64,000 nucleotides of DNA from Candidatus Uhrbacteria bacterium. Lineage in GTDB: Bacteria; Patescibacteriota; Patescibacteriia; GWA2-47-26. The notes beneath the pieces were generated by a model, which had not been told where the DNA came from, searched no databases, and worked only from the letters and a program-made list of their open reading frames with translations. Positions 1 through 61,565 of the stretch are shown one piece after another. Each line of letters starts with the position of its first letter. Within the stretch, counting starts at the first letter, position 1. A program made the translations under genes and the position numbers. The DNA is taken from positions 128,856 to 192,855 of the forward strand of contig JACPJN010000006.1 in assembly GCA_016187515.1 (NCBI GenBank). The letters are read 5' to 3'.

Positions 1-184
1 CCAAGATGATGAGCACGTGGGCGATCTGCGCGGTGCCGATGGAGATCACCACCTTGTCTGCGGCGTGATGCCTTGCGATGAAGGCGTTGACTGCCGCCTT
101 GTCGTTGCCCAGCGGCACACCGCGCACCTTGCGCTTGTCGTCGGTTGCGTCGCCGATGTACCCGGAGTAGGTCGGATCCAACAT
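1..184 (-). CDS. hypothetical protein (partial; continues past window start)
   Basis: ATG at 184-182 on the minus strand is preceded by a GGAGGAA Shine-Dalgarno-like motif. Hand translation MLDPTYSGYIGDATDDKRKVRGVPLGNDKAAVNAF... runs to position 1 without a stop. Absent from the ORF track because it is incomplete. No family recognised. Confidence 0.3.
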   Translation of the reverse strand, partial: MLDPTYSGYIGDATDDKRKVRGVPLGNDKAAVNAFIARHHAADKVVISIGTAQIAHVLIIL

Positions 185-436
185 CTGAAGTTCCTCCTTG
201 CTCTTTCTGTTTTACCGTGCTTTTTACACGGCCAATCAAGGAAAGAGAACTTGATTGGGATTATATTCCTTTTATCATACTTTTGCCCTTTTGTCAAGAG
301 GTGGGGTATACTAGGGAAATTGCGCACCTGCTGTCATCCCGAGCGCAGCGAGGGATCTCTTCACCAAGCCATCATCATAGATCATGGTGTAGAGATTTCT
401 CCCCCGCCAAGGCGGTGTCGAAATGACAATTACTTT

Positions 437-7770: not shown

Positions 7771-8766
7771 TTAAGAATCCTCTCCGGCAAGTTTTCCAAG
7801 GATCTCCGCGTAATCCTCGTCCGAGTAAAAATTCATGGTAATGCGGCCGCGTCCTCCCCGTTTTTCGATTTGCACTTTGGTGTTGAACTTTTCGCGCAAG
7901 CGCGCCTCATCCGCGGCAACCGCCGGATCTTTGATTCCGACCCGTTTTTTTCTTACCTGCGGAGCCGCGAGCGTTTCCGCGGCTTTCACCGTCAACCCCT
8001 GCTCCAGAATGGTCCGGAATATCTCCTCCCGCACTTTGGGATTATCCAAGGTGAGCAACAGTCGAGCATGGCCGATCGAAAGGCGCCCGGAACCGATCGC
8101 TTTTTGCATCTCGCTTGAGAGTTCAAGCAAACGCAGCGTATTGGAAATTGTCTCGCGGCTTTTACCCATTTTTTTAGCGGCTTCCTCTTGAGTCAGACCA
8201 AACGCCTCAATCAATTCGCGGTACCCTTCGGCCTCTTCAATGGGATTCAAATCCTGACGCTGGAGATTTTCGATCAGCGAAAGTTCCAAGCGCTCCAGAT
8301 CATCAGCATGGCGCACGAGGACCGGAACTGCCGCAAAATTAAGATTGCGCGCCGCGCGCAGACGGCGCTCGCCGGCAATCAGCTCAAAACGCCCATCGTT
8401 TTTTTCCGTAACAATCAACGGCTCCAGAATTCCGTGTTTTTCAATGGAGGCCTGGAGCTCGGCCAGTTTTTCCGGATCGAAAAAAGTCCGCGGCTGGGCC
8501 GGATTGGAATCCACTAAATCCGGAGCGACCGTAAGCACGCGCAAAACATCTCCTTCCTTCGCATCATGGGGAGGCAATACCGGACCCCCTCTAACTCCCC
8601 TGCCCAACAATTTCCCCCCCTGCCCGCCGCCTCTGGCGAGCCTCGCCTCTGGCGGGAGGGGGGGTTCGGGGGGGTGGGAGGGAGGGGTGGGAGCGGGGGG
8701 GTGGGAGATGGGGGTGGGCACACCGCCCGGAATCAATGATCCTAAACCTTTACCAAAAGTATCCAT
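7771..8766 (-). CDS. parB: chromosome partitioning protein ParB/Spo0J
   Basis: The ParB box is present (ELIAGERRLRAARNL), with HTH GYRELIEAFGLTQEEAAKKMGKSRETISNTLRLL. ORF-track 7771..8838 is trimmed to MDTFGKG at 8766. The N-terminal region contains a roughly 140-bp in-frame GC-rich palindromic insert (8575-8720) encoding a Pro/Gly-rich linker. Confidence 0.88.
   Translation of the reverse strand: MDTFGKGLGSLIPGGVPTPISHPPAPTPPSHPPEPPLPPEARLARGGGQGGKLLGRGVRGGPVLPPHDAKEGDVLRVLTVAPDLVDSNPAQPRTFFDPEKLAELQASIEKHGILEPLIVTEKNDGRFELIAGERRLRAARNLNFAAVPVLVRHADDLERLELSLIENLQRQDLNPIEEAEGYRELIEAFGLTQEEAAKKMGKSRETISNTLRLLELSSEMQKAIGSGRLSIGHARLLLTLDNPKVREEIFRTILEQGLTVKAAETLAAPQVRKKRVGIKDPAVAADEARLREKFNTKVQIEKRGGRGRITMNFYSDEDYAEILGKLAGEDS
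8575..8720. repeat. GC-rich palindromic element inserted in-frame in parB
   Basis: gaccccctctaactcccctgcccaacaatttcccccc...gggagggggggttcgggggggtgggagggaggggtgggag. Its 5' end is identical to the elements at 35622 and 62860. Confidence 0.65.
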
Positions 8767-8775
8767 ACGTTTGAA

Positions 8776-8910
8776 AAATTCCAAATTACAAGCACCAAAA
8801 CACAAGGAAATTCCAAGCTCCAAATTACAAATTACCAACGTTTGAAATTTTGATATTGAAATTTAGGATTTATTTGTAATTTGTGATTTGTAATTTGGTA
8901 TTTTGGTAAC
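8776..8910. repeat. Long A/C-rich : G/T-rich low-complexity hairpin (ccaaattacaaatt ... atttgtaatttgg) in the parA-parB spacer
   Basis: The ggaaattccaagc(a/t)ccaa word array is followed by its inverted complement. A related element is embedded in the RNase P RNA at 42365-42500. Confidence 0.55.
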
Positions 8911-10909: not shown

Positions 10910-11989
10910 ATGAGCATTTTTTTTGACTCCATAATTTTGCTCTACCTCATCGCTTCCGCCACGTTGGGTATTGCTCTGTTTCGTGATCGCCGGCGGACTG
11001 GCACCTGGGAATCCCGCCACAAATTGCTAGCCATTAGTTGTTCAGTTGTTTTGTTGTTTAGTTTTTTGGTCGTAATCTGGGGCTCGTTCATTGAACCGCG
11101 CCTTATCACGGTAAAGACCGTACAGATTGATTTACCCAATTTTGAGCCAACCCAGCCGGTACGCGCGGCGCTGATATCCGACGTGCATGTCGGGACCTAT
11201 AAAAAAGGCGGTTGGATCCAGCGCGTGTCAAAACGCATCATTGCCGAACAGCCGGATTTGGTACTTATCGCCGGCGACCTGATTGTCAGCAAACCCGAAC
11301 ACGCGCAATACCTTTCTTCATTCTCCATTCTTAACTCTTCATTCCCAACCTACGCCGTGCTTGGCGACCATGATTATCATGTTAACCATGGCTACACGCT
11401 CGATCCAGAACTTGCCTCCGCGGTTGAAGAAGAGCTCATCCGCGCCGGAATACAAGTCATGCACAATGAAGCGCGGAAAATCGAGATTAACGATGCAACA
11501 TTTTGGCTCCTCGGTCTTGACGACTGGCTCGCCGGAAAAACCGACCTGCCGCACGCACTCTCCCAATTAACCAATCAACAAATCAACGAATCACCAATTG
11601 TTGCGCTCATCCACAACCCCGACTTTATCCTTGACCCGGAATTCACTGCCAAGGCGGGACAAGCAAAAAAAGCCGACTTAATCCTGGCCGGCAATACTCA
11701 TGGCGGACAAATTCGGCTGCCTTTTATTGGGGCAGTCAGTCGCCTACCCTCAAAACTCCCGCGCGCCTTTGATAAAGGACTATTTGATATTACTCCTCCC
11801 ACCCCTCCGCTCCCACCCCTCCTAACCTCCCCTCGGGCAGGGGAGGAAAAATTGTTTCTCCCCCTTGTCAAGGGGGAGTTAGAGGGGGTCCAAAAACGCT
11901 ACGTCTTTATCACCTCCGGCATTTCCGAATCCGGCCCCCGCGCCCGCCTCTTCAACCCGCCGGAAATCGTCATACTAGAGTTCAACTAA
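10910..11989 (+). CDS. membrane-anchored metallophosphoesterase (calcineurin-like)
   Basis: N-terminal TM helices. Metal-binding motifs are present: ISDVHVG, GDLIV, GDHDY and GNTHGGQ. An in-frame GC-rich palindromic insert at 11795-11890 encodes TPPTPPLPPLLTSPRAGEEKLFLPLVKGELEGV. Confidence 0.8.
   Translation: MSIFFDSIILLYLIASATLGIALFRDRRRTGTWESRHKLLAISCSVVLLFSFLVVIWGSFIEPRLITVKTVQIDLPNFEPTQPVRAALISDVHVGTYKKGGWIQRVSKRIIAEQPDLVLIAGDLIVSKPEHAQYLSSFSILNSSFPTYAVLGDHDYHVNHGYTLDPELASAVEEELIRAGIQVMHNEARKIEINDATFWLLGLDDWLAGKTDLPHALSQLTNQQINESPIVALIHNPDFILDPEFTAKAGQAKKADLILAGNTHGGQIRLPFIGAVSRLPSKLPRAFDKGLFDITPPTPPLPPLLTSPRAGEEKLFLPLVKGELEGVQKRYVFITSGISESGPRARLFNPPEIVILEFN
11795..11890. repeat. GC-rich palindromic element (reverse orientation of the 35622/62860 element) in-frame in the phosphoesterase gene
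   Basis: The reverse complement reads gaccccctctaactcccccttgacaagggggagaaacaatttttcctcccctgcccgaggggaggttaggaggggtgggag. This is near-identical to the copies at 35622-35706 and 62860-62938. Confidence 0.7.
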
Positions 11990-13515: not shown

Positions 13516-13986
13516 CTACCTCTTTTTCTTAGGCAGATATTCTTCGTATTTTTTTCTTTCCGCCAGCTGCGCGTATTCTCGTTTGTAGTTTTTCAGCACA
13601 CCTTTCAAAATCACCGCAAACCAAGAAACGGTAATCAAAAAAATCAGCAGCGTCCACCCTCGCGCGGAAAGAATCACGGCGCCGACTTGTCTGGACCAAA
13701 TCAGTATCAGCATAAACGCCGCGAAAAACCAGAATGGACGGCTAAGTTTGGAAAGCCCGCGGGCCAGCGGCGGATTATCTTTTTTCCGGCGGCTTAATAT
13801 CTTAAAGACAATTCCCCCGCCAATAAACAAGGCCACGACAATAATCGCGGCAATAAAAGAAAACCGACGCAATGGCGGAGTATATACCGCAAACCAATAA
13901 GAGAGGTGCAATAGATTGGTAAATTGCATGCGAGTAGGTAAATCAAGTAAATTAAGTAAAGCAAGTAAATCAAGGGCTTGATTCAC
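13516..13986 (-). CDS. hypothetical membrane protein (about 4 TM helices)
   Basis: Hydrophobic segments FIAAIIVVALFIGGGIVF, FWFFAAFMLILIW and LLIFLITVSWFAVIL. No family recognised. Confidence 0.5.
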   Translation of the reverse strand: MNQALDLLALLNLLDLPTRMQFTNLLHLSYWFAVYTPPLRRFSFIAAIIVVALFIGGGIVFKILSRRKKDNPPLARGLSKLSRPFWFFAAFMLILIWSRQVGAVILSARGWTLLIFLITVSWFAVILKGVLKNYKREYAQLAERKKYEEYLPKKKR

Positions 13987-14009
13987 TTGTCTCGCTTGAC
14001 TTGCATGAT

Positions 14010-14567
14010 TTACTTTTTCTCAAAGACAATGCCGAAGTGATACGGGCCGGCCTCGAATTCCTCGCGATACTCAAATCCGGCTTCTTGAGCCAGTTGCCGC
14101 GCCGTCGCTGGCGCGATGCGCCGCTCCGGAGGAGGACCCAAGGGGCTCGCGGTTTGCTTCCAATCGCCAACCAGCAGCGTGCCGCCGGATTTGGTAATCC
14201 GCGCCGCCTCGCGCAGGACTGCCGCGCGGGCCGGAATTTGAGAAAGATCATTGACGAGCACCGTCAGATCCGCGGAACCATCCGTAATTTTCAGCGCGCC
14301 CGGTTTTTCCAAATCCGCCCACACGGTTTCCACATTATCCACTCCTTCGAGCTTGGCCCGGCTGCGGATCGCCTCCAGCACGGATTTCAAAATATCCACC
14401 GCGTACACCCGCCCGGTCGGGCCGGTCAGATGCGCGGCGGGAAATACAAAATGCCCGGAGGTACCGCAGGCCAGCTCCGCGACAATATCCCCCTGTTTAA
14501 TGCCGGCGCGGGTCAGGAGTTTCACCGCGTCGATTAGCTCGTTGCCGCCGTGGAATCGAATGGACAT
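14010..14567 (-). CDS. class I SAM-dependent methyltransferase
   Basis: Motif I VAELACGTSGHF, followed by acidic motif II VYAVD and motif III-like LLVGDW. The start is moved to MSIRFHG (14567), because the upstream 15 codons of ORF-track 14010..14612 are encoded by the intergenic repeat. Confidence 0.7.
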   Translation of the reverse strand: MSIRFHGGNELIDAVKLLTRAGIKQGDIVAELACGTSGHFVFPAAHLTGPTGRVYAVDILKSVLEAIRSRAKLEGVDNVETVWADLEKPGALKITDGSADLTVLVNDLSQIPARAAVLREAARITKSGGTLLVGDWKQTASPLGPPPERRIAPATARQLAQEAGFEYREEFEAGPYHFGIVFEKK

Positions 14568-14608
14568 ACGATTGCAGTAAAGCAAGTAAATCAGGTAAAT
14601 CAAGTGAA

Positions 14609-15028
14609 TCAAATGCTTGATTTACTTGACTTGCTCGTCTCGCCTGATTTACTTAATTGATGAGTATTATCCTTCTGACTTTGAATCCATCGCCGTAATT
14701 TTTTACTTACCTCCCCTCCAAGCGCCTCAATACTAGTATACTGTGCTTTATCAATATAGCCAAGCTCACATGCGACCATCAGCTGATATCGTACCTCCTC
14801 TAAGGAAGCATCGGCAATATTGTAAAAGTGGAGACTATCATATACTGACTTTCTGTGAAAGCCCTCTACAATATTGGATGCTACAGATAGCGCGGCACGA
14901 CGTAGCTGTGATACAAGGCCGTACATCTCATGTGGTGGAAACTTTGCAGTAAGGCGATACACTTCTACCACAAGTTGATGTGCTTTCTGCCACACCTGTA
15001 AATCCCTAAAGGTACTGATCTGTGCCAT
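14609..15028 (-). CDS. four-helix-bundle protein (23S rRNA intervening-sequence protein / Avd-like family)
   Basis: FRDLQVWQKAHQLVVEVYRLTAKFPPHEMYGLVSQLRRAALSVASNIVEG matches the family consensus. The C-terminal tail (SKSGETSKSSKSS) is encoded by the TTGATTTACTTG repeat, so the true stop may lie earlier. Confidence 0.75.
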   Translation of the reverse strand: MAQISTFRDLQVWQKAHQLVVEVYRLTAKFPPHEMYGLVSQLRRAALSVASNIVEGFHRKSVYDSLHFYNIADASLEEVRYQLMVACELGYIDKAQYTSIEALGGEVSKKLRRWIQSQKDNTHQLSKSGETSKSSKSSI

Positions 15029-15076
15029 ACAACCTGATTTACTTGATTTACCCGTGATTTACCTGTCTCGCTTGAT

Positions 15077-15322
15077 TTACTTCAACCCAAACAACCTCCC
15101 AAAAATCGCCAAACCAATACTTTGCAAAATTCCGCTCATGTAGAAAAACGAGAGCAAGATGATCGCCACCCCCGCTAATTTATAAAATAGCCGCGAACCG
15201 CCTTCGGTTCCCAAATGCTGCTCGGCCCAAGCGACCGGGCCAAGCGAATTATATAATTTTTCCGAATAAATTACGATAAGCGCCCCGACCGCGGCTCCGA
15301 TTAACGCGAAAATATAACGCAT
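15077..15322 (-). CDS. small membrane protein (2 TM)
   Basis: MRYIFALIGAAVGALIVIY... and VAIILLSFFYMSGILQSIGLAIFG. No family recognised. Confidence 0.45.
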   Translation of the reverse strand: MRYIFALIGAAVGALIVIYSEKLYNSLGPVAWAEQHLGTEGGSRLFYKLAGVAIILLSFFYMSGILQSIGLAIFGRLFGLK

Positions 15323-17179: not shown

Positions 17180-17911
17180 CTACTTACTACTTACTCTCCG
17201 TGCCGTTCTCCTTCCCCCAATCATTCTAATCGCTTCCGGAATTATGTCAACTTGGATGGGGGTTTTAACCACCCCGGAGGCGCCGCAATTAACCGAGATC
17301 GGCCGGACGGCCTTAAGCCGGCAAGAAGCGATCTTAAGCACGGTGGTTTCTTCCGGTTCTCTGCTCCACCAGGTTCGCTTAAAAGGGGTCACGCGCACGG
17401 TAAGCAATCCATCATTGCCGTTTTCCCCGTCTCCCAGATTCACGATCTCGACGCGGGTAAAACCCTTGGGGAATATGCTGAAGGTCGGCGTGTGAACGTC
17501 CAATCCTTTCCCTTCACCGCACACTTTCCCAAGAAAATACTTTTCTCCGATTCTCCCCAGATCAAGTTTTATAATTCGGCGCGCGGCCAGCGCGTCTACC
17601 GCGGCCAGGCCGTCGGGAATGGCGAGCTCGGGCGCGTAGTTGCTTTTTACCGCCGGAATGTAACCCAAAATAACCGAGGTTTTCGCGAAAGCGTTCACCG
17701 CTTCTTCAAGCAGTGCGTCATCTCCCACCAGCACCAGGGTTTTTAGCCGCTTGAGTCCGAATTCTTTGACTGCCGCGGGAAATTTGAGAAATTGCGAGAG
17801 CTGGGAAATTTTTCCGGAAATTCCAAAATCGGTAACGCGTCCTTCAATCAGCGCGAGCTCGCGCGCGTACTTTTTATTCCGCAAGAATGGCGCGTAAAGA
17901 TAAAGATACAT
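17180..17911 (-). CDS. DAGK_cat-type lipid kinase / NAD-kinase-fold protein with degenerate GGDGT motif
   Basis: LVLVGDDALLEEAVNAFAKTSVILGYIPAVKSNYAPELAIP aligns to the diacylglycerol-kinase catalytic-domain pattern GGDGT..V.NGL....LG.IP.GT.NDFAR. The key Gly/Asp/Thr residues are substituted (GDDA). Confidence 0.5.
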   Translation of the reverse strand: MYLYLYAPFLRNKKYARELALIEGRVTDFGISGKISQLSQFLKFPAAVKEFGLKRLKTLVLVGDDALLEEAVNAFAKTSVILGYIPAVKSNYAPELAIPDGLAAVDALAARRIIKLDLGRIGEKYFLGKVCGEGKGLDVHTPTFSIFPKGFTRVEIVNLGDGENGNDGLLTVRVTPFKRTWWSREPEETTVLKIASCRLKAVRPISVNCGASGVVKTPIQVDIIPEAIRMIGGRRTARRVSSK

Positions 17912-17912
17912 A

Positions 17913-18000
17913 GAGAATTCCTAATTCACCTAATTGACCTAATTTCTAAACTTGGGATTTGGGATTTGTTTAGATTAATTAGGAATTAGAGTACTTAGAA
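17913..18000. repeat. AATTAG-word low-complexity hairpin with TTGGGATTTG core
   Basis: ctaattcacctaattgacctaatttctaaac ... ttgggatttgggatttgtttag ... attaattaggaattagagtacttag. A second member with a GC-rich loop insert lies at 47865-48045. Confidence 0.55.
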
Positions 18001-18006
18001 ATTCTT

Positions 18007-30596: not shown

Positions 30597-33500
30597 CTAC
30601 GGCGGCGTATACCGTCCGCCGGTGTCGAGGTAGTTATCCCCGTCGTATCCACCCCAGACAATCATCTCGGAGCCAGTCCAGACGGCGGTAGGCAGACGAC
30701 GGGCCGTTGGCGCACCTGTCAAGGCCATATCTGCCCACGTATCACTGCTGGGATCATAACGTGCGCCATCATCAAAGTGATTCGCGAAAGCACCTTCACC
30801 GTCAGTCCCGCCCCACACGATCATCTCGGAACCGGTCCACACCGCAGTGTGCAAGTAGCGCGCCGAAGGAGCACCTGAACTTGAAATCCCGAGCCAAAGC
30901 TCTGTGCCAGGGAAATACAGTGCACCATTGGAGAATTCGGTTGTCCCAGAGCGGCCACCCCAGATAATTATACACTGCTGACTGCCGGAAGCAGAATCGC
31001 AGTCATCTGCCACTATCATCGTGTGGTACTCTCGAGCAGAAGGGTCTCCGATAGTTGGCATCGCAGTCCATGTATTGTTCACAGGATCGTAAATGCCGCC
31101 ATCTCCCCTTGGGCCGCTGCAAGACCGGCCTCCCCACACAATCATCGTGGATCCTGTCCACACTGCCGGGTGAGCGCGTCTTAGGGAGGGTGTCCCAGTT
31201 GTCGAAGTCGCTGCCCACGAATTATCGCTTACCCTGTAACGGCCGCCTGTGTTTGTAAGCGAACAACTTCCACTGGTATCTCCGCCCCAAACTATAAGCT
31301 CAGATCCTGTCCATACTCCAGAATGGTTGAGGCGCGCTGAAGGAGCGCCTACGGTACTCGTAGCGCTCCAAGTATTTGCGGAGGGATCATATCTTCCGCC
31401 TGTATTGTACTCTGACGACAAGTGAAATCCACCCCATACGATCAGCTCGATTCCGGTCCAAACCCCAATGTGACTCTGACGGCTTGCTGGTGCACCACTC
31501 GTTGTTGTGGCAAACCAAGCATCAGCTTCAGGGAAATATCGGCCACCTGTTCCAGTTCCAGTGAGGTAAGCTATTTCACCACCCCAAATAACCATGCATT
31601 CCTGAAGTCCGGCAGTTGCTGTGTCACAATCCACACCAGATGTCCACACCGCGGCAGGATTTGTGCGCGGCGATGGAGCGCCTGTTGTTGTCACCGGCAG
31701 CCAGTACCCCACTGCGCAGCAAGCACTTCCGCATCGCTCGTACCCTAGATCGCAGGTAATCACGCATGTGCCGCTAGTGCAACGCACAGTGCCATTTACC
31801 GGTGCAACACATGCTCTTCCGCATGCACCGCAATGATCCAAATTAGAGTTGATATTCACCTCGCAGCTATCTACTGCGCTATCATCGCAATCTCGCAAAC
31901 TGCCTGAACATGCAGTGCAGATGCCAGACAAGCAGTAGGAAGTGAAGTTTGTGCACACAGCGCAGGTACTCCCGCATGCCTCGTTGTTTGCAGAAACCGA
32001 GGTTTCACAGCCATCCTCTGCCACTCTATTGCAGTTGGCATATCCAGCAAGGCAAGTAAATCCGCAGGTTGCCGCGCTGCACGTAGCGGCTGCGTTTGCC
32101 CGCGAAGGACAGGCAGTATCAATAAAGGTATAACCGCATATCCCATCGGCGCAGGTACCTGGGCTGTCGTACGAACGCACTGCCGGGCCTGAAACACATT
32201 CATCCGCAGGCGGATTGTCGCAGACAATCGGCGTACCATTGCAAACCCCGCCGCCACACTCATCTCCATCGGTGCACGCCTCTGCGTCGTCACAAGAATC
32301 AGCATTGTCCGTAAACACGCAGTCCGTTGCCGCGTCGCAAGAGTCGTCGGTGCAGATATTCGTGTCGTCGCACACAATCGGTGTTCCTGCGCATGTTCCG
32401 CCGCCGCACACATCCCCTGCGGTGCACGCATCCACGTCATCACAGGGATCAGTGTTGTCCGTAAACACACAGCCGGTCGCGGGGTTACACGAGTTGTCAG
32501 TGCAGATGTTGCCGTCGTTGCAGGTGATTGCAACTCCTGCGCATGTTCCGCCGCCGCACACATCCCCTGCGGTGCACGCATTTCCGTCATTGCAAACCAC
32601 CGTATTGGGCTCGTTCACGCACCCGGCCGCGCTGTCGCAGGAGTCGTCGGTGCAGGGACTACTGTCGTTGCACGCCGCATCAGATGGCGTAAACACACAG
32701 CCGGACGCGGAATCGCAGGTATCCACGGTGCAGACAACGGAGTCATTGCAGACCACGGCCGTAAACACGCACGCGCCGCTATCGCACGCATCACTGGTGC
32801 AAGCGTCTTCGTCGTTGCAGACCGTGTCCGTGGCCGTGTAGGAACACACGCCGCCGGAACACGTGCCAACCGCCGCAAAAGTACGGCGCGTCAGCCCATC
32901 CGCGCACTCGGCCGAAGGCGGGCTCACGCAGACCATTGGCGTGCCACTGCAGGCGCCGCCAGAACAGATATCTGACACGGTGCACGGATCCGCGTCATCG
33001 CAGGAGGCGGTGTTATTGGCAAACACACAGCCCGTTGCCGCGTCGCACGAGTCGTCGGTGCAGGGACTACTGTCGTTGCATTCCCCGTCTTCCGGCGTAA
33101 ACACGCAACCGGACGCGGGAGCACAGGAATCCGCGGTGCAGGCAACGGAGTCATTGCAGATCACGGCCGTAAACACGCACGCGCCGCTATCGCACGCATC
33201 ACTGGTGCAGGCGTTGCTGTCGTTGCAGACCGTGTCGGTGGCCGTGTAGGAGCACACGCCGCCGGAACACGTGCCGACCGCGGCATAGGTGCGCCGAGTT
33301 ACTACGTCTGCGCATTCGCTAGCCGGCGGCGCTTCACACGCAACCAGCGTCCCATTACAGGTACCATCCGCGCACACATCTGACAGCGTGCACGGATTTC
33401 CGTCGTTGCAGACGACAGTATTGGGATCGTTCACGCACCCGGTCGCGCTGTCGCACGAGTCGTCCGTGCAAGGACTACCGTCCTCGCACGCCGCATTATT

Positions 33501-34745
33501 CGGCGTAAACACACAGCCGGACGCGGAATCGCAGGTATCCACGGTGCAGGCGATCGCGTCAGCGCAGGAGACCGGCGTGTAAACGCACGCGCCGCCCCTG
33601 CACGCGTCAGCTGTACAGGCGTCCGCGTCATTGCAGGAAGTGTCCGTAGACACGTAGGAGCACACGCCACCCGCGCACGCTCCAGAGGCGGCATAGGTGC
33701 GGCGGGTAAGGCCGTCTCCCAAACACTCGGCTGAAGGCGGAGTTTCGCAAACCATTGGCTCTGCCGCACAAACCTCGCCGTCGCAATGATCAGCCACGGT
33801 ACAGGGATTTTCATCATCACAGATCGTGTCCAAGGCGCTGCAAACCTCCCAGGCGCACGCCGCGCAGTTCTGAATTCCGATTGTGCCGCACGCTGGTACG
33901 CACGGCTGAAGCGCTGCGCCTTCGCAGTCCTCGCCCGAATCGCGCACGCCGTCCCCGCAGGAAGGCAAAACGCACGCGCTACGGCAGGCGTTGGGAAGCA
34001 CGTTGGAATTGTCCGCTCCATTATCACACTGCTCGCCGGAGTCCGTAACTTCATCTCCGCAACGGAAAACGGTGCAATCGGTCCGGCAGGCGTCCGGCGC
34101 GGTGTCGGAATTTTCCGCGCCCTCGTCGCACTCCTCGCCGGAATCCGCCACCTCATCACCGCAGGAAGGTTCCCCACAGTTTGTTCTGCACGCATCCGGC
34201 GCGGTGTCAGAGTTTTCCGCGCCTTCATCGCACTGCTCGGCGCTGTCGGAAACTCCATCACCGCAGATCGCGGCACTGCAGTCAACGCGGCAGGCGTCCG
34301 CTTCGGTGTCGGAGTTATCCGCACCATTGTCGCATACCTCTGCCTCATCAACCACGCCATCGCCGCAGTACGCTGCGAGGCAGTCAGAACGGCAAGCATC
34401 AGGCGCGATATCCGAGTTAAACGAACCGTCGTCGCACTCCTCGCCGCTATCGGTAATCGCGTCGCCGCAGAAAGGCCGACGACAATCCGTCCGGCACACG
34501 TCCGGATCATCAGCGTTGGCTGCTCCGTTATCGCACTCCTCGCCCGGATCGCGCCGCCCGTTGCCGCAGGAAGGAACGTAGGCGTCGGGCGAAATGCCCG
34601 CATCCGGCGGGGCCATCCCCATATCCGGCAGGAGTTGAGGCGCGATTGCCATGTCCGGCTCCGGCGTTGCCGCCGGATTGCTTCCGCAGGACAACAAACA
34701 CATCAGACCCGTAAGCGTCAACACGTTTCGCTTGTCAAAGTGCAT
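30597..34745 (-). CDS. giant (1382 aa) Cys-rich surface lipoprotein: Myxococcus-type cysteine-rich repeats + CxxxC tandem repeats + C-terminal Kelch-like propeller
   Basis: Lipobox signal MHFDKRNVLTLTGLMCLLSC. About 7 tandem CGDGxxDxGEECDxG...NSD..PDACRxDC units (Myxococcus cysteine-rich repeat pattern). About 20 further units such as CNDxxxCTxDxC. Eight WTGSEMIVWGG-type repeats. C-terminus GGRYTPP. GC is markedly higher than elsewhere in the window. Confidence 0.75.
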   Translation of the reverse strand: MHFDKRNVLTLTGLMCLLSCGSNPAATPEPDMAIAPQLLPDMGMAPPDAGISPDAYVPSCGNGRRDPGEECDNGAANADDPDVCRTDCRRPFCGDAITDSGEECDDGSFNSDIAPDACRSDCLAAYCGDGVVDEAEVCDNGADNSDTEADACRVDCSAAICGDGVSDSAEQCDEGAENSDTAPDACRTNCGEPSCGDEVADSGEECDEGAENSDTAPDACRTDCTVFRCGDEVTDSGEQCDNGADNSNVLPNACRSACVLPSCGDGVRDSGEDCEGAALQPCVPACGTIGIQNCAACAWEVCSALDTICDDENPCTVADHCDGEVCAAEPMVCETPPSAECLGDGLTRRTYAASGACAGGVCSYVSTDTSCNDADACTADACRGGACVYTPVSCADAIACTVDTCDSASGCVFTPNNAACEDGSPCTDDSCDSATGCVNDPNTVVCNDGNPCTLSDVCADGTCNGTLVACEAPPASECADVVTRRTYAAVGTCSGGVCSYTATDTVCNDSNACTSDACDSGACVFTAVICNDSVACTADSCAPASGCVFTPEDGECNDSSPCTDDSCDAATGCVFANNTASCDDADPCTVSDICSGGACSGTPMVCVSPPSAECADGLTRRTFAAVGTCSGGVCSYTATDTVCNDEDACTSDACDSGACVFTAVVCNDSVVCTVDTCDSASGCVFTPSDAACNDSSPCTDDSCDSAAGCVNEPNTVVCNDGNACTAGDVCGGGTCAGVAITCNDGNICTDNSCNPATGCVFTDNTDPCDDVDACTAGDVCGGGTCAGTPIVCDDTNICTDDSCDAATDCVFTDNADSCDDAEACTDGDECGGGVCNGTPIVCDNPPADECVSGPAVRSYDSPGTCADGICGYTFIDTACPSRANAAATCSAATCGFTCLAGYANCNRVAEDGCETSVSANNEACGSTCAVCTNFTSYCLSGICTACSGSLRDCDDSAVDSCEVNINSNLDHCGACGRACVAPVNGTVRCTSGTCVITCDLGYERCGSACCAVGYWLPVTTTGAPSPRTNPAAVWTSGVDCDTATAGLQECMVIWGGEIAYLTGTGTGGRYFPEADAWFATTTSGAPASRQSHIGVWTGIELIVWGGFHLSSEYNTGGRYDPSANTWSATSTVGAPSARLNHSGVWTGSELIVWGGDTSGSCSLTNTGGRYRVSDNSWAATSTTGTPSLRRAHPAVWTGSTMIVWGGRSCSGPRGDGGIYDPVNNTWTAMPTIGDPSAREYHTMIVADDCDSASGSQQCIIIWGGRSGTTEFSNGALYFPGTELWLGISSSGAPSARYLHTAVWTGSEMIVWGGTDGEGAFANHFDDGARYDPSSDTWADMALTGAPTARRLPTAVWTGSEMIVWGGYDGDNYLDTGGRYTPP

Positions 34746-40714: not shown

Positions 40715-42148
40715 TCAATAAGTGCCTCGTTGTCCCGCGACCGCCAGCGGGGTTTTAAGTAAGATGATGAGGTCGAGCTTTAAGGACCAGTGTTCCATGT
40801 AGTAGGTATCCAAGCGCGTCTCTTCGTCAAACGAAAGATCAGCGCGGCCGGAGATTTGGGCCAGTCCGGTCATTCCGGGATTGATTCTCATAATTTTTTT
40901 CTGATGTTTTTCATACTGCGCAACCTCTTCTGGAAAATGCGGTCGCGGACCCACGAGAGACATTTTCCCCGCCAGCACTAAAAACAACTCCGGCAATTCA
41001 TCAATTGACCACTTGCGGATCAATCGGCCTACAGCCGTGATGCGCGGATCCTCGGTATCTTTGAATTTTACCAGCGGCCCTTTGCGGATATCCAAATGCT
41101 TAAGTTCTTTGTAGCGCATTTCATGGGTATCCGGTTTCATCGAACGAAACTTCACATATTGAAACCTCTTACCGCCCTGGCCCACGCGAGGATACTGAAA
41201 TAATATTGATCCTCGCGAGTCAAGTTTAATTGCCAGCGCGGTAAGGAGCATGATCGGGAAAGTAACAATAATCAAAAGTAACGCGCCGATAATATCAAAA
41301 ATCCGCTTATAAACTCTTCCCCAACCTTCGAGCCGCGTGCGCTTAATTTCCATAAGCGGCACCCCGGCCAGCGTATCAAACTCCAGTCCGGCGCCGTGCG
41401 TTGCCAGTACGTCGGCGGAATAACGAAACGCAAGATGGTACTCGTCGGCAAGATCAAGAATTCTATGCAAATCGTCCCCGCCGTTTTGGGAAAGCGCGAT
41501 AATCTGGTCTAATCCGCCCCGCGCGGCAAGCGCGCGCAACTGAAGTTCAGCATCTTTGTTTAATGTTTCTGCGTGGAATACCACTTTGAGTCCATACTTT
41601 GGATTATGCTTGATCATTCCCAGAAGCGCTTGCGCAGAAGATCCGCGGCCAATCACTGCCACGCACTGAAGTCCTACTCCGGCACGCAAGAGTCCACTGC
41701 GAACCACGCGCAGAATTATCCGAGCCATACTGACAAATACGATCGCAAATCCCCAGGATACTAAAAGAATGAACCGTGATTCAAACAATTCGCGGGAAAA
41801 CACGATTACGGCGAGCACCGCGCCAAGCCCGGCGGTGGAAGCCACCACCACCTTTTTAAACTCCTCCAGTTTTTTGCGTCGGCCAATGGTATACAGACCG
41901 GAAAGCGCGAAAATAATAATCCAGCCAAGCGCAATAAGCGCTGCCGCTTTCAGATACAGCTCAAAGGGCAAATTGAATATCACTGGCCGCCGAGCAACCG
42001 CAAATTCCGCATGACGCAGCGCATAAGCTGCAAGCGCGGCCAAAAGCAACGCCGCATAATCCAGAGGGACGAGAATCGTCGTAAAAAAGAGATCTAATCT
42101 CCGCATAAATGGTTGTTGTAGTGTATCATTGGTTAGACCGCTTGACAA
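40715..42148 (-). CDS. polyprenyl-phosphate sugar phosphotransferase (WbaP/bacterial sugar transferase family)
   Basis: N-terminal TM helices followed by the C-terminal catalytic domain KRIFDIIGALLLIIVTFPIMLL...SRGSILFQYPRVGQGGKRFQYVKFRSM...GPRP. Confidence 0.88.
   Translation of the reverse strand: MSSGLTNDTLQQPFMRRLDLFFTTILVPLDYAALLLAALAAYALRHAEFAVARRPVIFNLPFELYLKAAALIALGWIIIFALSGLYTIGRRKKLEEFKKVVVASTAGLGAVLAVIVFSRELFESRFILLVSWGFAIVFVSMARIILRVVRSGLLRAGVGLQCVAVIGRGSSAQALLGMIKHNPKYGLKVVFHAETLNKDAELQLRALAARGGLDQIIALSQNGGDDLHRILDLADEYHLAFRYSADVLATHGAGLEFDTLAGVPLMEIKRTRLEGWGRVYKRIFDIIGALLLIIVTFPIMLLTALAIKLDSRGSILFQYPRVGQGGKRFQYVKFRSMKPDTHEMRYKELKHLDIRKGPLVKFKDTEDPRITAVGRLIRKWSIDELPELFLVLAGKMSLVGPRPHFPEEVAQYEKHQKKIMRINPGMTGLAQISGRADLSFDEETRLDTYYMEHWSLKLDLIILLKTPLAVAGQRGTY
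40739..40800. repeat. 62-bp direct repeat, copy 2 (the native 3' terminus of the sugar-transferase gene)
   Basis: See 39482-39543. Confidence 0.8.
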
Positions 42149-42170
42149 GTACGGCGTAGTATGCTATACT
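42143..42170 (+). promoter_or_regulatory. sigma70-type promoter of rnpB (TTGACA - 16 nt - TATACT)
   Basis: cttgacaagtacggcgtagtatgctatact reads directly as a consensus -35/-10 pair. The transcript would start near 42177. Confidence 0.6.
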
Positions 42171-42177
42171 TGATTTT

Positions 42178-42963
42178 GTACCCTGAAAACCGGATGATCG
42201 CCCCCACACCTATCAGACACAGTGACGCACAGCGTCAAAACAGGACCTAGGTATACAGGTGTTGATGAAAAGCATCGTTTGCCAGTTGAACAAGACAGAC
42301 TTGCTTACTAGTGTCTGAAAGGTGTGGGGGAGGAAAGTCCGAACACCCCAACCAGTGCTTCGCACTGGAAATTCCAAGCACCAAGCACCAAATACCAAAA
42401 AAATCCCAAACTAAAAATTCCAAATCACAAACTTGGAATTTGGGATTTGGAGATTGAATATTGTCTGGAATTTGGAAATTGTGATTTGGGATTTCCAGCG
42501 CGGAGCGCTGGCGGAAGTAGGTACCAGCTAACGGCTGGGCATCCTGCTCGGCATAACACATAAAGCCGGCTGACGGATTAGTGCCACAGAGACAATACTA
42601 CCCCCACACCTATCAGACACTTTGGCGCGAAGCGCCACAAGAGCCTAACCATACGGAAGTTCTTGCTGAATACAACTGCCAGTCGAATAAGACAGGATGT
42701 GCATGTACAAGGTGCCTGAAAGGTGTGGGGGGAAAGGTGAAAAGTGAGGTGGTGTTTATCGCTTAATTCCACTCTAAAGGTGGCGTAAACGAGGAAGCTA
42801 CACCTCTTGCTCCCGAGTAATCGGGATGCGTGGAAAACCCTACCTGGTGCAAGTCGTATAACCGACGCATGAGGCCCCGCGTAAGCGGGGTCCCAGAGAG
42901 ATGATCATCCAGTCCCGCGGACGCGGGACGGACAGAATTCGGCTTACAGGTTTTCTTGGTACG
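42178..42963 (+). ncRNA. rnpB: RNase P RNA (bacterial type A core) with greatly expanded P3, P5.1-region and P12 helices (about 786 nt)
   Basis: CR-I GGAGGAAAGTCCGAACACC is at 42329. A P5.1-like UUCG hairpin ccagtgcttcgcactgg follows. Then CCAGCTAACGGCTGGG (a P8-like GNRA-type hairpin). Then AGTGCCACAGAGACAATAC (cf. E. coli AGUGCAACAGAGAGCAAAC). Then a CR-II-like GGTGAAAAGTGAGGTGG. CR-V ACAGAATTCGGCTTA is at 42932. P1/P2 pairing joins 5' GTACC/GAAAACC with 3' GGTTTTC/GGTAC. The expansions are 42201-42330 (P3 position), 42365-42500 and 42601-42731 (P12 position). Confidence 0.65.
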
Positions 42964-42969
42964 CAAAAA

Positions 42970-42996
42970 GACCCCGCAATCGCGGGGTCTTTTTTA
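42970..42996 (+). terminator. Rho-independent terminator of rnpB
   Basis: gaccccgcaatcgcggggtc followed by ttttttaat. Confidence 0.8.
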
Positions 42997-43006
42997 ATCG
43001 TTAAAA

Positions 43007-43321
43007 TTATTTTTCTCGCGCGCCTGCGCGGCGTGCGGCGTATCCGGAAAGCCGGGCTTGTAAAATTTCTCTGCGATCTTTTGCCTGTCGTAATTTATCC
43101 TCAACTTCTGCCAAATGGGCGGCGGCAACTTTTGTAACATCCCCTTGTTCTCTCCCGCGAATATTCGGACTCATTGGTTGCGGTTGCATCATGCGCTCCA
43201 AATTGAGAATTTCCTGTTCAACTCGCGCCAACTCATCCGCCACGCGCGCTTCAGCTTCATCCTCACTCATGCCTCCCCCCTCTACACTCATTACTTTTAG
43301 ATCGCGAGGTGTTTCACCCAT
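43007..43321 (-). CDS. hypothetical coiled-coil protein (104 aa)
   Basis: Charged, helical composition. Downstream partner of 43457..44122. Confidence 0.4.
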   Translation of the reverse strand: MGETPRDLKVMSVEGGGMSEDEAEARVADELARVEQEILNLERMMQPQPMSPNIRGREQGDVTKVAAAHLAEVEDKLRQAKDRREILQARLSGYAARRAGAREK

Positions 43322-47864: not shown

Positions 47865-48045
47865 ATTACAAATTGATAATTATTCTAATTATCCTAATTG
47901 ATCTAATTATTCTAAACAATGTCCAAGCACCTCACGCCCAAGGCGGATGCGCCTGAGGCGCAAAATCCCAATTTTGGTTATTGGATGTTGGGATTTGTTT
48001 AGGTCAATTAGAGTAATTAGGTGAATTAGGTCAATTCTCATTATA
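47865..48045. repeat. AATTAG-word low-complexity hairpin with a GC-rich loop insert; same family as 17913-18000
   Basis: ctaattatcctaattgatctaattattctaaac ... gcgcctgaggcgc ... ttgggatttgtttaggtcaattagagtaattaggtgaattagg. Confidence 0.55.
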
Positions 48046-49921: not shown

Positions 49922-49974
49922 AGAGTTGAATGTAAAATTTAAAATGTAAAATGTAAAATTGTTTATTAAGAATT

Positions 49975-53134: not shown

Positions 53135-53144
53135 TCGCGGAATT

Positions 53145-54695
53145 ATGAATTATGAATTAAGAATTATGAATATACGGAGATCGATTCTCCGTGGCCACGG
53201 AGAATCGATCTCCCGATTTTTCCTACTCCTTACTCCTTATTCCTTATTCCTAATTCTCACGCTTGCTCTACCAGCGCAAGCCCAATCCCTGCCCCAACTT
53301 AAAACCTTTTGCTTTACCCAAGACGAGTGCGTTTCCCCGCCCTACAGCGGCGAGGCCAAAGAAGCGCCGGAATGTCGTGACCAAGATCCCCGCTATGTCC
53401 AGGCCGGCTATCTTTACAACTGTTACGCCAAACAGCAGCCCATCCGCCTGGAGGTCGGGATTGGCCCGTATAAAGTCGCGGGCATTGAGGATTATATCCG
53501 CCGACTCTACATTTATCTCATTGGCATCTCCGGAATCGTGGTGGGCGTGATGTACACTTGGGCCGGCTTAAAATGGCTAACCTCGGGCGGAGCTCCGGAC
53601 AGAATCACGGACGCGAAAAAGAAAATCGGAAACGCCACGGTCGGGCTCGTGCTGCTGCTCTCCTCCTACCTGATTCTCCAAACCGTTAATCCCGCGCTCG
53701 TGCGTCTGCGTTTGCCGGCCCTGAAGATGCCCCGCCAGGTTCTCTTGGGGGACGACTTGTGTGTAAATCGCCCGGAATATCCCTGCGGCGGATTAAAATT
53801 GCGGCCATCGCTAAGCCAGGATGGGCTGGGTCAATGGCAAGTCGCTCTGCTCGATCCCCTGCTCCGGGACAGGAAATATCAATGTGATGACCCCAGTAAT
53901 GCGGACTTGGCGCGTAACCCGCCTTGCCAAGACGGAGTCGGCTCCGGCGCTTGCGTACCCCGCTTCTGTCCATTTCCGGGATGCTATACCCTGCTTGAGG
54001 ACCGGATTACTGAAGATGCTCAAGATGTTATCGAGGGCATCGACGAGTATCAAGAAGCTCGCGATGCTGGACTGAATGTTCCCACTGGAACGAGCGATGC
54101 TGAGGTTTTGGAGCTGATCACGACTTTCCGCGAACAAGCCAGCCAAAATCAACGGATGTGCGTTAAACCGGAACAGTGCGGAGGGTGCGCGGCCAATACT
54201 CCCTGGGCGGTCTGTGTCTCGTCTGCTTGTCCCTGCATACTGGATGTAAAAGAAATTGGCGGGGAAGATCAGATCGTTTGCGCCGGCCGGCGAGGTGAAG
54301 GTCAGCCCTGCGAAAGGCATGAGCAATGCCAAGGCCAAGGCCAAGGCGGCCGAGCCGGACGCTGCAACTTTGGCCGCATACCTAATGAATGCACTCCGGA
54401 AGGAGGCGAGCCACCCGGACAGCCCTGCGATGTTGATGGCGATTGCGCAAGCGGGCTATGCAATGAGAATGCCGCGACAGATGTATGCGTTGCTCCGCAA
54501 TCGCTCCGCATTGGAGAGGATTGTTCTTCCAGCGAAGAGTGTGTTACCGGGGTTTGCGGATATGAAGGCGTGATTAGCACTCTTAATCCCGCCTCTGACC
54601 CAGTTTGTATGGCGGCAGGACAATGTAACGGTCTAACCCGAGTTGGCTGTCCTTGTGAAACTTCCATCAACTGCAATACGAATACCGGGGATTAA
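53145..54695 (+). CDS. secreted/membrane protein with VirB2/TrbC-like two-helix hydrophobic hairpin and C-terminal Cys-rich domain (tentative)
   Basis: Signal peptide FFLLLTPYSLFLILTLALPAQA. The hydrophobic helices IYLIGISGIVVGVMYTWAGLKWLTSGG and IGNATVGLVLLLSSYLILQTV are separated by a short polar loop. The long C-terminal region has more than 30 Cys. Start taken at 53145 within ORF-track 53043..54695. Confidence 0.4.
   Translation: MNYELRIMNIRRSILRGHGESISRFFLLLTPYSLFLILTLALPAQAQSLPQLKTFCFTQDECVSPPYSGEAKEAPECRDQDPRYVQAGYLYNCYAKQQPIRLEVGIGPYKVAGIEDYIRRLYIYLIGISGIVVGVMYTWAGLKWLTSGGAPDRITDAKKKIGNATVGLVLLLSSYLILQTVNPALVRLRLPALKMPRQVLLGDDLCVNRPEYPCGGLKLRPSLSQDGLGQWQVALLDPLLRDRKYQCDDPSNADLARNPPCQDGVGSGACVPRFCPFPGCYTLLEDRITEDAQDVIEGIDEYQEARDAGLNVPTGTSDAEVLELITTFREQASQNQRMCVKPEQCGGCAANTPWAVCVSSACPCILDVKEIGGEDQIVCAGRRGEGQPCERHEQCQGQGQGGRAGRCNFGRIPNECTPEGGEPPGQPCDVDGDCASGLCNENAATDVCVAPQSLRIGEDCSSSEECVTGVCGYEGVISTLNPASDPVCMAAGQCNGLTRVGCPCETSINCNTNTGD
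53177..53224 (+). terminator. 38-bp perfect palindrome + T-tract (ggagatcgattctccgtggccacggagaatcgatctcc cgattttt), a terminator-like structure lying inside the 5' coding region of the next gene
   Basis: Read directly from the sequence. The only in-frame ATGs for the downstream secreted protein (53145, 53166) lie before it. Confidence 0.5.
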
Positions 54696-61095: not shown

Positions 61096-61244
61096 GGTTT
61101 TCCTCCTGTTGGATTTTGGGCCATTCTGGTTAAATCAAGGTACACTCTCTCTATACCACAAGACGCACGATCTGTCAACCCCTTACGCAAAACGCAAAAG
61201 CGGCCTTGCGGCCGCTCCAATTCCTACGTACTACGTCCTACATA

Positions 61245-61565
61245 CTACGTACTCGCCACGGGCGTTTCCTTCAGCCGTTTTTTGTAATCCCGCAAAAAGT
61301 AAAGTTTGGCGCGGCTAACCTTGGCCTGACGCACTGGCTCAATCTTGACGACGGCCGGCGCGCGAAGCGGGTATATTTTTTCTACCCCCACGCCGTCAGC
61401 GCCAATCTTGCGCACGGTGATCGTGGCTTGCGGTTCATTTCTGCCATGGCGCGCGATCACGATGCCTTCAAAAATCTGCACGCGCTCTTTTTCGCCTTTT
61501 TCGGTTTGCTCTTTGATTTTTTCATGCACCTTGACGGTCATCCCGGGTTTGATTGAATCGTGCAT
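61245..61565 (-). CDS. rplS: 50S ribosomal protein L19
   Basis: [48 protein letters not shown] is the canonical L19 sequence. Confidence 0.9.

Follow-up and report, generated by a model that had tools for sequence, protein, structure and literature searches.

Mobile-element modules and heptamer repeats in an oversized RNase P RNA gene of Candidatus Uhrbacteria

RNase P RNA is usually 330-450 nt long in bacteria. The RNase P RNA gene (rnpB) described here belongs to a metagenome-assembled genome of Candidatus Uhrbacteria, an uncultured groundwater bacterium of the Patescibacteria (candidate phyla radiation, CPR), and lies in a 64,000-nt stretch of contig JACPJN010000006.1, referred to below as the window. 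Its product has the same core as other type-A RNase P RNAs (RF00010), CPR forms included: P1-P5, P7-P11, J11/12, P13/14, P15, P18, CR-I and CR-V. In contrast to the usual type-A RNA, it is about twice the normal size, and P3 and P12 hold paralogous copies of one element. These two helices have been taken over by members of a mobile-element family, and the hairpin between P5 and P7 by arrays of heptamers.

Large extensions are not unusual in this group of bacteria. Lui et al. (2021, PMC8172020) described CPR RNase P RNAs with 'large extensions of helices' or missing helices, often lacking the GGU motif. The origin of the extensions was not traced there; in the window they can be traced to a mobile-element family and to heptamer repeats.

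Invasion of rnpB by repeats also has a precedent: Vioque is said to have described, in 1997 (Nucleic Acids Res 25:3471), short tandemly repeated repetitive (STRR) heptamers in helix P12 of rnpB from heterocyst-forming cyanobacteria. In both cases, 7-nt tandem repeats found throughout the genome are tolerated in a peripheral rnpB helix, which makes STRR sequences the closest precedent for positions 42369-42494. Unlike STRR sequences, the window repeats lie between P5 and P7, form inverted arrays and hence a long hairpin, and stand beside two transposon-type inserts. The heptamer insertion is analogous to the STRR case and not a member of it, as it is not in P12 and occurs in a Patescibacteria genome.

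A third parallel is provided by the intervening sequences of 23S rRNA. These are selfish-looking inserts bordered by inverted repeats; they replace the tip of a helix, have homologues at more than one helix and a patchy distribution, are cut by RNase III, and are proposed to be remnants of transposition (PMC4990558). Intervening sequences are degraded after cutting; for the modules, conservation of the interior argues for retention, and the host molecule is RNase P RNA. No report of such inserts in RNase P RNA was found in a literature search.

Correia/nemis elements (Neisseria), ERIC and RUP are co-transcribed bacterial miniature inverted-repeat transposable elements (MITEs) which fold as RNA hairpins. 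They resemble the modules in their size (~100-150 bp), terminal inverted repeats, short target-site duplications, lack of a transposase, high copy number, location near promoters and formation of hairpins in transcripts. The modules differ in their end sequence and 4-5-bp duplication, in an unusually variable interior and in having copies fixed in a ribozyme gene. Their CC ends and 4-5-bp duplication are reminiscent of IS1380/piggyBac-type elements, which is presumably a lead. The locus extends known kinds of feature (helix expansions of RNase P RNA, repeat invasion of rnpB and rRNA intervening sequences) and does not form a new category. It provides a sequence-level example of how a universal ribozyme may gain expansion segments: a mobile element with inverted-repeat ends would enter a peripheral hairpin by insertion or recombination, its ends would become a helix and its interior a side domain under RNA constraint.

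The window locus is an RNase P RNA gene with an intact catalytic and specificity core. In an Rfam cmscan search, RNaseP_bact_a (RF00010) matched positions 42178-42962 of the plus strand with 106.9 bits (gathering score 100, E = 1e-31); this was the sole RNase P RNA match across the window. CR-I and CR-V could both be placed, and the identification of rnpB in the initial annotation, made from these and other landmarks, is correct. The score is low because of the inserts and because cmscan threaded the 5' third wrongly, placing positions 1-60 of the model on the long hairpin's G/T-rich arm. The true 5' end was set by the pairings of P1 (42178-42191 with 42949-42962) and P2 (42192-42199 with 42903-42910), not by cmscan. 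Within P1 and P2 lies the P4 pseudoknot, formed by CR-I (GAGGAAAGUCC, 42331-42344) and CR-V (ACAGAAnnCGGCUUA, 42932-42946) and invariant among relatives. The CACC strand of P5 pairs with GGUG at 42846-42849, as read from the sequence. The specificity domain (P7-P11, J11/12, P13 and P14) is present, and the cmscan alignment contains few non-canonical pairs across 42516-42860. In the unconstrained minimum-free-energy fold of the full RNA, P1 and P2 are preserved and every insert makes a separate domain (z = -16).

The P15 loop (42850-42866) reads GUCGUAUAACCGAC and does not contain the GGU motif, which pairs with the tRNA 3'-CCA. Lui et al. (2021, PMC8172020) found 23 of 35 CPR RNase P RNAs to lack this motif; its absence is no argument against membership, since it is normal for the group. 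P16 and P17 are apparently absent as well, which fits the account that Lui et al. give of most CPR RNase P RNAs.

The sugar transferase encoded upstream (40715-42106, minus strand) has orthologues of 56-81% amino-acid identity, through which the relatives were reached. Measured from the P1 5' strand to the P1 3' strand, the window rnpB is 785 nt long; syntenic rnpB genes are 391 nt (L013), 420 nt (L007), 461 nt (L009) and 585 nt (L011), in line with the roughly doubled length noted initially. The rnpB cores align over 405 shared columns, 220 of them invariant, at 67-77% identity to the window, and CR-I, CR-V, P4, P2 and J11/12 are exactly as in the relatives. P1 has changed on both strands with pairing maintained (GUACC/GGUAC in the window, GCUUG/CAAGC in relatives); the gene has therefore been under selection after divergence. 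The 910-nt locus is complete at 100% identity in two Logan contigs from separate runs (SRR12113424 and SRR12113383), and two identical independent assemblies mean that it is not an assembly artefact.

The modules at 42201-42330 (130 nt, P3) and 42601-42731 (131 nt, P12) are paralogous and exactly replace the native stems, of which no remnant is left. Homologous modules with identical ends and shared internal words had been proposed at these two places. The homology is confirmed, as is an interior word common to both (TGCCAGTYGAAYAAGACAG). The 5' arms are identical at 20/20 positions and the 3' arms at 19/20; the 20-mer arm occurs four times in the window (two per module, both strands counted) and is expected 0 times in 100 shuffles. 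As wholes the modules are not near-identical: pairwise identity is ~69% overall and 58% in the interior, and the '82% mean column identity' given by the alignment tool is not a pairwise identity. The two modules are old paralogues and not a fresh duplication.

Each module has a stem of ~20 bp with a single A-A mismatch, to which the P12 copy adds an A-C mismatch; three hairpins stand on the stem. Both folds are more stable than those of shuffled sequence (z = -7.9 for P3 and -6.3 for P12). By its interior, the P12 copy falls into one subfamily with the P3 copies of relatives, and it has hairpin a and the hairpin c loop in common with P3 copies. In the modules and in the long hairpin, folding is equally good on either strand and there are few G-U pairs. 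The mobile unit is therefore a DNA element (MITE-like) rather than an RNA-level module; strand-equal folding is consistent with an origin as a DNA palindrome. The 'mobile or duplicated RNA module' of the initial annotation is thus both mobile and duplicated, given a family with inverted repeats and target-site duplications and a P12 copy of the same subfamily, and the RNA part of that description does not stand. An origin of the modules and hairpins as RNA structures which evolved before insertion was considered and dropped, as they are neither G-U-rich nor stable on one strand only. No known Rfam family was found for either module or for the long hairpin in a scan at E up to 1, which gave just weak miRNA- or terminator-like noise.

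Complementarity between the 3' arm of the P3 module (42310-42330) and the 5' arm of the P12 module (42601-42621) reaches 95%. Stem partners could therefore be swapped and the ribozyme misfolded; co-transcriptional folding would have to prevent this.

Elements with the same ends occur widely in groundwater metagenomes. A scan of the metagenome collection with the pattern CCCCCACACYTATC-N(95-125)-GTGGGGG returned 54 loci, corresponding to ~42 distinct elements of 120-144 bp; nearly all are outside rnpB and most are intergenic. Elements whose right end differs from the 14-bp repeat by more than 2 mismatches were set aside as probable chance matches. The ~42 elements have 14-bp terminal inverted repeats (CCCCCACACCTATC...GATAGGTGTGGGGG) with little or no variation. 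In nearly all free copies the terminal duplex extends to ~20 bp (range 13-27), its inner part being variable yet complementary; the interior sequence differs between subfamilies. Exact target-site duplications are present in 19 of the 33 free copies with both flanks readable (16 of 4 bp and 3 of 5 bp; chance expectation for such exact direct repeats, ~0.2), at targets including TTGA, TAAA, CTTG, TTAT, TCAA and TTTA. The terminal inverted repeats, target-site duplications and small size make the family MITE-like, or a mobile insertion cassette. From these features it would be a non-autonomous DNA transposon which behaves as one or the other, and it has apparently not been described before.

The same ends are also found on a 458-bp cassette (L067, 5532-5989) with an apparent AGTTAT repeat; this carries a 114-aa DUF7768 open reading frame and no transposase, so the ends can mobilise a passenger gene. 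The module was not found in viral contigs, PLSDB plasmids or INPHARED phages. An exact-arm scan of genome contigs gave one match, in Roseovarius, which has no rnpB nearby and was judged to be due to chance.

Many free copies are located exactly at a -35-like hexamer (L022, L029, L040, L049, L053, L057, L058 and L074). Here the duplicated TTGA, CTTG, TCAA or CAAG falls within CTTGACA and a -10-like box follows ~17 nt downstream, for example TTGA, the element and TTGACACC...TACAAT in L057. From this arrangement, promoter -35 boxes seem to be sites that the element either prefers or survives in, with the box regenerated on one side. One 330-kb contig (Ga0265593_1000003) has two copies with different interior subfamilies (L056, 2815-2950, and L069, 8012-8144), so several subfamilies coexist in one genome.

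Members of the family reside in several rnpB genes. Two of the ~42 scan elements are inside rnpB, a target of a few tens of nt in a ~1-Mb genome, so that rnpB copies are strongly over-represented. Survivorship may account for part of this, as the pattern required intact ends, which selection on RNA folding preserves in rnpB while free copies decay. L064, a divergent CPR rnpB (63.9 bits), has in P3 an element that resembles the free copies L045 and L071 in its interior. In L044 the element lies immediately upstream of CR-V (J2/4), and its interior matches the free copies L051, L061 and L070. A third interior subfamily comprises the P3 and P12 copies of Uhrbacteria. In all, at least three lineages have the family in rnpB, where it occupies three positions (P3, P12 and J2/4), so its capture is recurrent; the range of Uhrbacteria rnpB sizes, from 391 to 785 nt, would allow it to be traced step by step. 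The family thus appears to have entered CPR rnpB repeatedly and to have been kept under constraint in one Uhrbacteria clade.

When filled and 'empty' rnpB sites are compared, the 'empty' relatives bear a native hairpin instead. The native P3 of relatives is short (19 nt, CCCCGAUGCAAGAUCGGGG), and an example of a native short P12 is GUCCCGACGCAAGUCGGGGC in L020. The native target hairpins at P3, P12 and J2/4 all have CCC(C)...GGGG stems, the base of which the CCCCC/GGGGG ends of the element would mimic. Trimming between the C-runs and G-runs, or recombination at microhomology, could then replace a hairpin exactly and leave no target-site duplication. The P12 copy, being of the interior subfamily of the P3 copy, may have arisen by intragenic copying or by a second mobilisation. 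Once transcribed within rnpB, the inverted repeats would zip into a long helix in place of the native stem; each element would then stand out from the ribozyme as an independent domain in a solvent-exposed place, and normal folding of the core would be unaffected.

After capture, the P3 element would have come under purifying selection as RNA, to judge from covarying stem pairs and a conserved apical loop. At least four Uhrbacteria have kept the P3 copy, with orthologous copies in L015, L018 and L020. In the adjacent gene, four-fold degenerate sites have reached saturation in every pair (26-40% identity; 35% for the window and L015). For the interior of the P3 module, identity is 81% between the window and L015 and 61-63% to L020; alignments of shuffled interiors give a mean of 51% and a maximum of 58%. 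Covariation in relatives had been named initially as a check, and compensatory changes are indeed seen in the stem and in hairpin a, with double changes at 4 pairs among five sequences. MAFFT and RNAalifold on the five modules aligned well just the stem (exchanges C-G/U-A/U-G, A-U/G-C and C-G/U-A) and hairpin a (A-U/G-C); hairpin c was read by eye. All five copies keep hairpin c, with a 5-bp stem (CUGYC/GRCAG, second pair C-A, U-A or C-G) and a conserved loop of 10-11 nt (AGUYGAA(A)YAA). The five rnpB copies of the Uhrbacterial subfamily follow one folding plan, each with three or four interior hairpins, most often three.

Conservation of the interior argues for a role at the RNA level and hence for its retention in the mature molecule; based on five sequences, this argument is suggestive and not conclusive. 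The modules most likely stay in the mature RNA as expansion segments, as far as sequence comparison can tell. It is possible, though doubtful, that they are now domesticated, functional parts of the ribozyme, with the AGUYGAA(A)YAA loop of the P3 and P12 copies docking a protein or making an RNA tertiary contact, and with the family homing to, or surviving in, GC-clamped rnpB hairpins. If so, a CPR lineage builds eukaryote-style RNase P expansion domains from mobile DNA.

The reading as a whole, in which an intact rnpB captured MITE-like elements at P3 and P12 that then came under constraint and are kept as expansion segments, is considered highly probable. Several points weigh against it. Covariation is thin, with double changes at 4 pairs in five sequences, and retention in the mature RNA is deduced solely from sequence conservation. 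None of the seven rnpB-resident copies has a target-site duplication, so that the entry route given above is a proposed one. A search of ~450 kb of fetched flanks revealed no transposase with these ends. The metagenome scan yielded no free copy of the Uhrbacterial interior subfamily, so the free-MITE origin of the Uhrbacterial copies depends on the other two subfamilies. The P3 module is patchy on the neighbour-joining (NJ) tree of the neighbouring gene, and at least two gains or an exchange of rnpB alleles are needed. Finally, the genome was viewed through 64 kb, and a second rnpB is possible elsewhere. The serious rival is that the modules behave as intervening sequences, cut by RNase III at their ~20-bp stems, so that RNase P RNA consists of two to three fragments joined by P1, P2 and stubs of P3 and P12. 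This would raise the possibility that RNase P RNA can be fragmented as 23S rRNA can be. The near-perfect duplex matches the size of the RNase III substrate in rRNA, and the position of the modules, at the tips of helices in a structural RNA, is like that of the intervening sequences in helices 25 and 45 of 23S rRNA. An excised interior should drift, however, and here it is 81% identical between the window and L015 despite saturated neutral sites, with compensatory changes in hairpin a and the hairpin c loop conserved in five copies. In addition, every stem has an A-A or A-C mismatch, and a cut in P3 would leave a 5' fragment of just ~35 nt. Excision is therefore rated as unlikely, and retention of the captured elements is preferred.

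The remaining alternatives are much less probable. That the window rnpB is a pseudogene overrun by repeats, with a working RNase P (RNA or protein-only) encoded elsewhere, could be argued from the 64-kb limit of the inspection and from a score barely over the threshold of 100 and below the 124-161 bits of relatives. The low score is accounted for by the inserts and mis-threading, however; CR-I, CR-V, P4, P2 and J11/12 match the relatives exactly, P1 has changed on both strands with pairing kept, promoter (11/12) and terminator are intact, the P3 module is kept in four species, and synteny links the locus to the one rnpB that relatives have. Decay of the gene is thus very improbable. Equally hard to credit is the reverse direction, in which the module is an old RNase P domain formed in situ and the free elements are escapees from rnpB. 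It would explain the resemblance of the CCCCC/GGGGG ends to a normal P3 base and the lack of a free copy of the Uhrbacterial interior type in the scan. Against this, relatives without the module have a homologous short P3 (CCCCGAU-GCAA-GAUCGGGG), so the short form is ancestral; free copies are far more numerous, with more diverse interiors, and the rnpB copies in L064 and L044 nest within free-copy subfamilies. A chimeric assembly, with repeats mis-joined into rnpB, has almost no probability. Some short-read contigs do break within the locus, at ~42369 and ~42567, but the two Logan contigs from different runs span its 910 nt at 100%, and relatives from other studies have the P3 module at the identical place.

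The third expansion was described initially as an A/C-rich arm pairing with a G/U-rich arm and as belonging to one family with a hairpin at 8776-8910. The long hairpin is real (z = -5.7) and lies between P5 and P7 (J5/7). Its pairs are almost wholly Watson-Crick (26 A-U, 13 G-C and 3 G-U): it is an A/C-rich arm opposite its G/T-rich complement, not an RNA hairpin dependent on G-U pairs. Positions 42369-42494 consist of an array of the 7-nt units AATTCCA, AGCACCA, AATACCA, AATCCCA and AATCACA followed by an inverted array; TRF detected period-7 repeats at 42374-42399 and 42433-42494. The native P5-P7 element of relatives is a hairpin of 14-22 nt. The window has there the same hairpin as L020 (CCAGUGCUUCGCACUGG), then 143 extra nt; according to folds, the hairpin (42352-42368) and the 143-nt insertion can together adopt the shape of a single long rod or that of a three-way junction. 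The proposed family relationship is a loose one: the long hairpin and 8776-8910 have the units AATTCCA, AGCACCA and AATYACA in common and BLAST matches of just 16-18 nt. Their kinship is one of repeat type and not of a discrete homologous element. Elsewhere in the window these units cluster only at 8777-8895, 17819-17959 and 47964-47988.

Other inserts are found at peripheral positions of rnpB in related species. A ~125-nt TACGAAT-repeat hairpin with conserved ends (CCTCACTAT... / ...CACAGAGCACCGAGCGRCAGYGAGG) occurs at three rnpB positions in three species (Table 1). L016 rnpB (443-1000) has a ~170-nt structured insert in J5/7 (P5-P7), L009 and L011 have inserts in P9, and L011 has a hairpin of A/C- and G/T-rich arms in J2/4. 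The P3 module is also present in L015, L018 (= L019), L020 and the more distant L064. Given such varied inserts across species, rnpB in the Uhrbacteria clade is a recurrent sink for repetitive DNA at peripheral positions. Inserts of this kind explain the poor scores of CPR RNase P RNAs with standard models, and missed annotation. L024 (1710-2293) is another oversized CPR rnpB, of 584 nt, which scores 78 bits, below the Rfam threshold; its free element is ~2.5 kb away.

Table 1. Features of the rnpB locus in the window, with related inserts of other species in the last rows
Feature	Position	Strand	Evidence and remarks
Sigma-70-type promoter	42142-42170	+	TTGACA, 17-nt spacer, TATACT; TG before second hexamer (extended -10); 11/12 consensus matches
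rnpB, bacterial type A	42178-42962	+	RF00010 score, P1/P2 pairings, core alignment to relatives
MITE-like element copy 1, replaces whole P3	42201-42330	+	~20-bp terminal stem, three interior hairpins (four-way junction)
CR-I / P4 5' strand (AGGAAAGUCCGAAC) and P5 5' strand (CACC)	42331-42347	+	Invariant across relatives
Native small hairpin between P5 and P7, CCAGUGCUUCGCACUGG	42352-42368	+	Identical 17-mer is the sole content there in L020
143-nt insertion	42369-42511	+	Inverted 7-nt repeat arrays (42369-42494) and diverged copy of native hairpin, CCAGCGCGGAGCGCUGG (42495-42511); absent in L020 and L015
P7-P11 region (P7 5' strand, P8, P9, P10/11 5' strands, CCACAGAGAC)	42517-42600	+	cmscan and relative alignment
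MITE-like element copy 2, replaces whole P12, orientation as copy 1	42601-42731	+	Placed inside P12 by cmscan
Remaining core: J12/13, P13/P14, 3' strands of P10/11, P7 and P5, P15, P18	within 42732-42946	+	cmscan and alignment
P2 3' strand	42903-42910	+	cmscan and alignment
Small J2/4 hairpin	42912-42929	+	cmscan and alignment
CR-V / P4 3' strand, ACAGAAUUCGGCUUA	42932-42946	+	cmscan and alignment
Intrinsic terminator hairpin, AAAAAGACCCCGC-AATC-GCGGGGTCTTTTT	42965-42994	.	13-nt arms, 100% complementary, then T-run
TACGAAT-type insert in P12	L011, 3530-3652		
TACGAAT-type insert in J5/7	L017, ~74-200	-	
TACGAAT-type insert in J2/4	L020, 1-55	-	Cut by contig end

The promoter ends 7 nt upstream of rnpB, with a predicted transcript start at ~42177-42178, and a promoter of matching layout is present upstream of L015 rnpB. 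The terminator was not called by a strict terminator scanner and is evident as a perfect inverted repeat; the weak Rfam matches over it are to terminator ends of other families. Being symmetric, it may act for the convergent 104-aa gene (43007-43321) as well. No homologue of this gene besides itself was found, and it was unusable for locating relatives.

The rnpB cassette (promoter, gene and terminator) is inverted with respect to its neighbours in the window, L015, L017 and L020, and is co-directional with the transferase in six relatives (L007, L009, L011, L013, L016 and L018). All four inverted loci have a GUACC-type P1. This suggests one inversion event, a grouping not recovered by the NJ tree of the transferase. 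A simple single gain of the P3 module was rejected as a poor fit to this tree; grouping by P1 type and cassette orientation fits better.

Numerous other tandem arrays of 7-9-nt units were detected by TRF in intergenic DNA of the window. They are located at 8654-8718, 11034-11597, 13938-15082, 17920-18003, 47877-48036, 49929-49959, 53140-53256 and 61224-61253, and several form inverted pairs. A G-rich array (GGGAGGGGTGGGAG) lies immediately upstream of the 8776-8910 hairpin. At 32248-33668 there are large tandem repeats, of period 150 and 408 nt (77-78% matches), which may sit in a repeat-containing gene.

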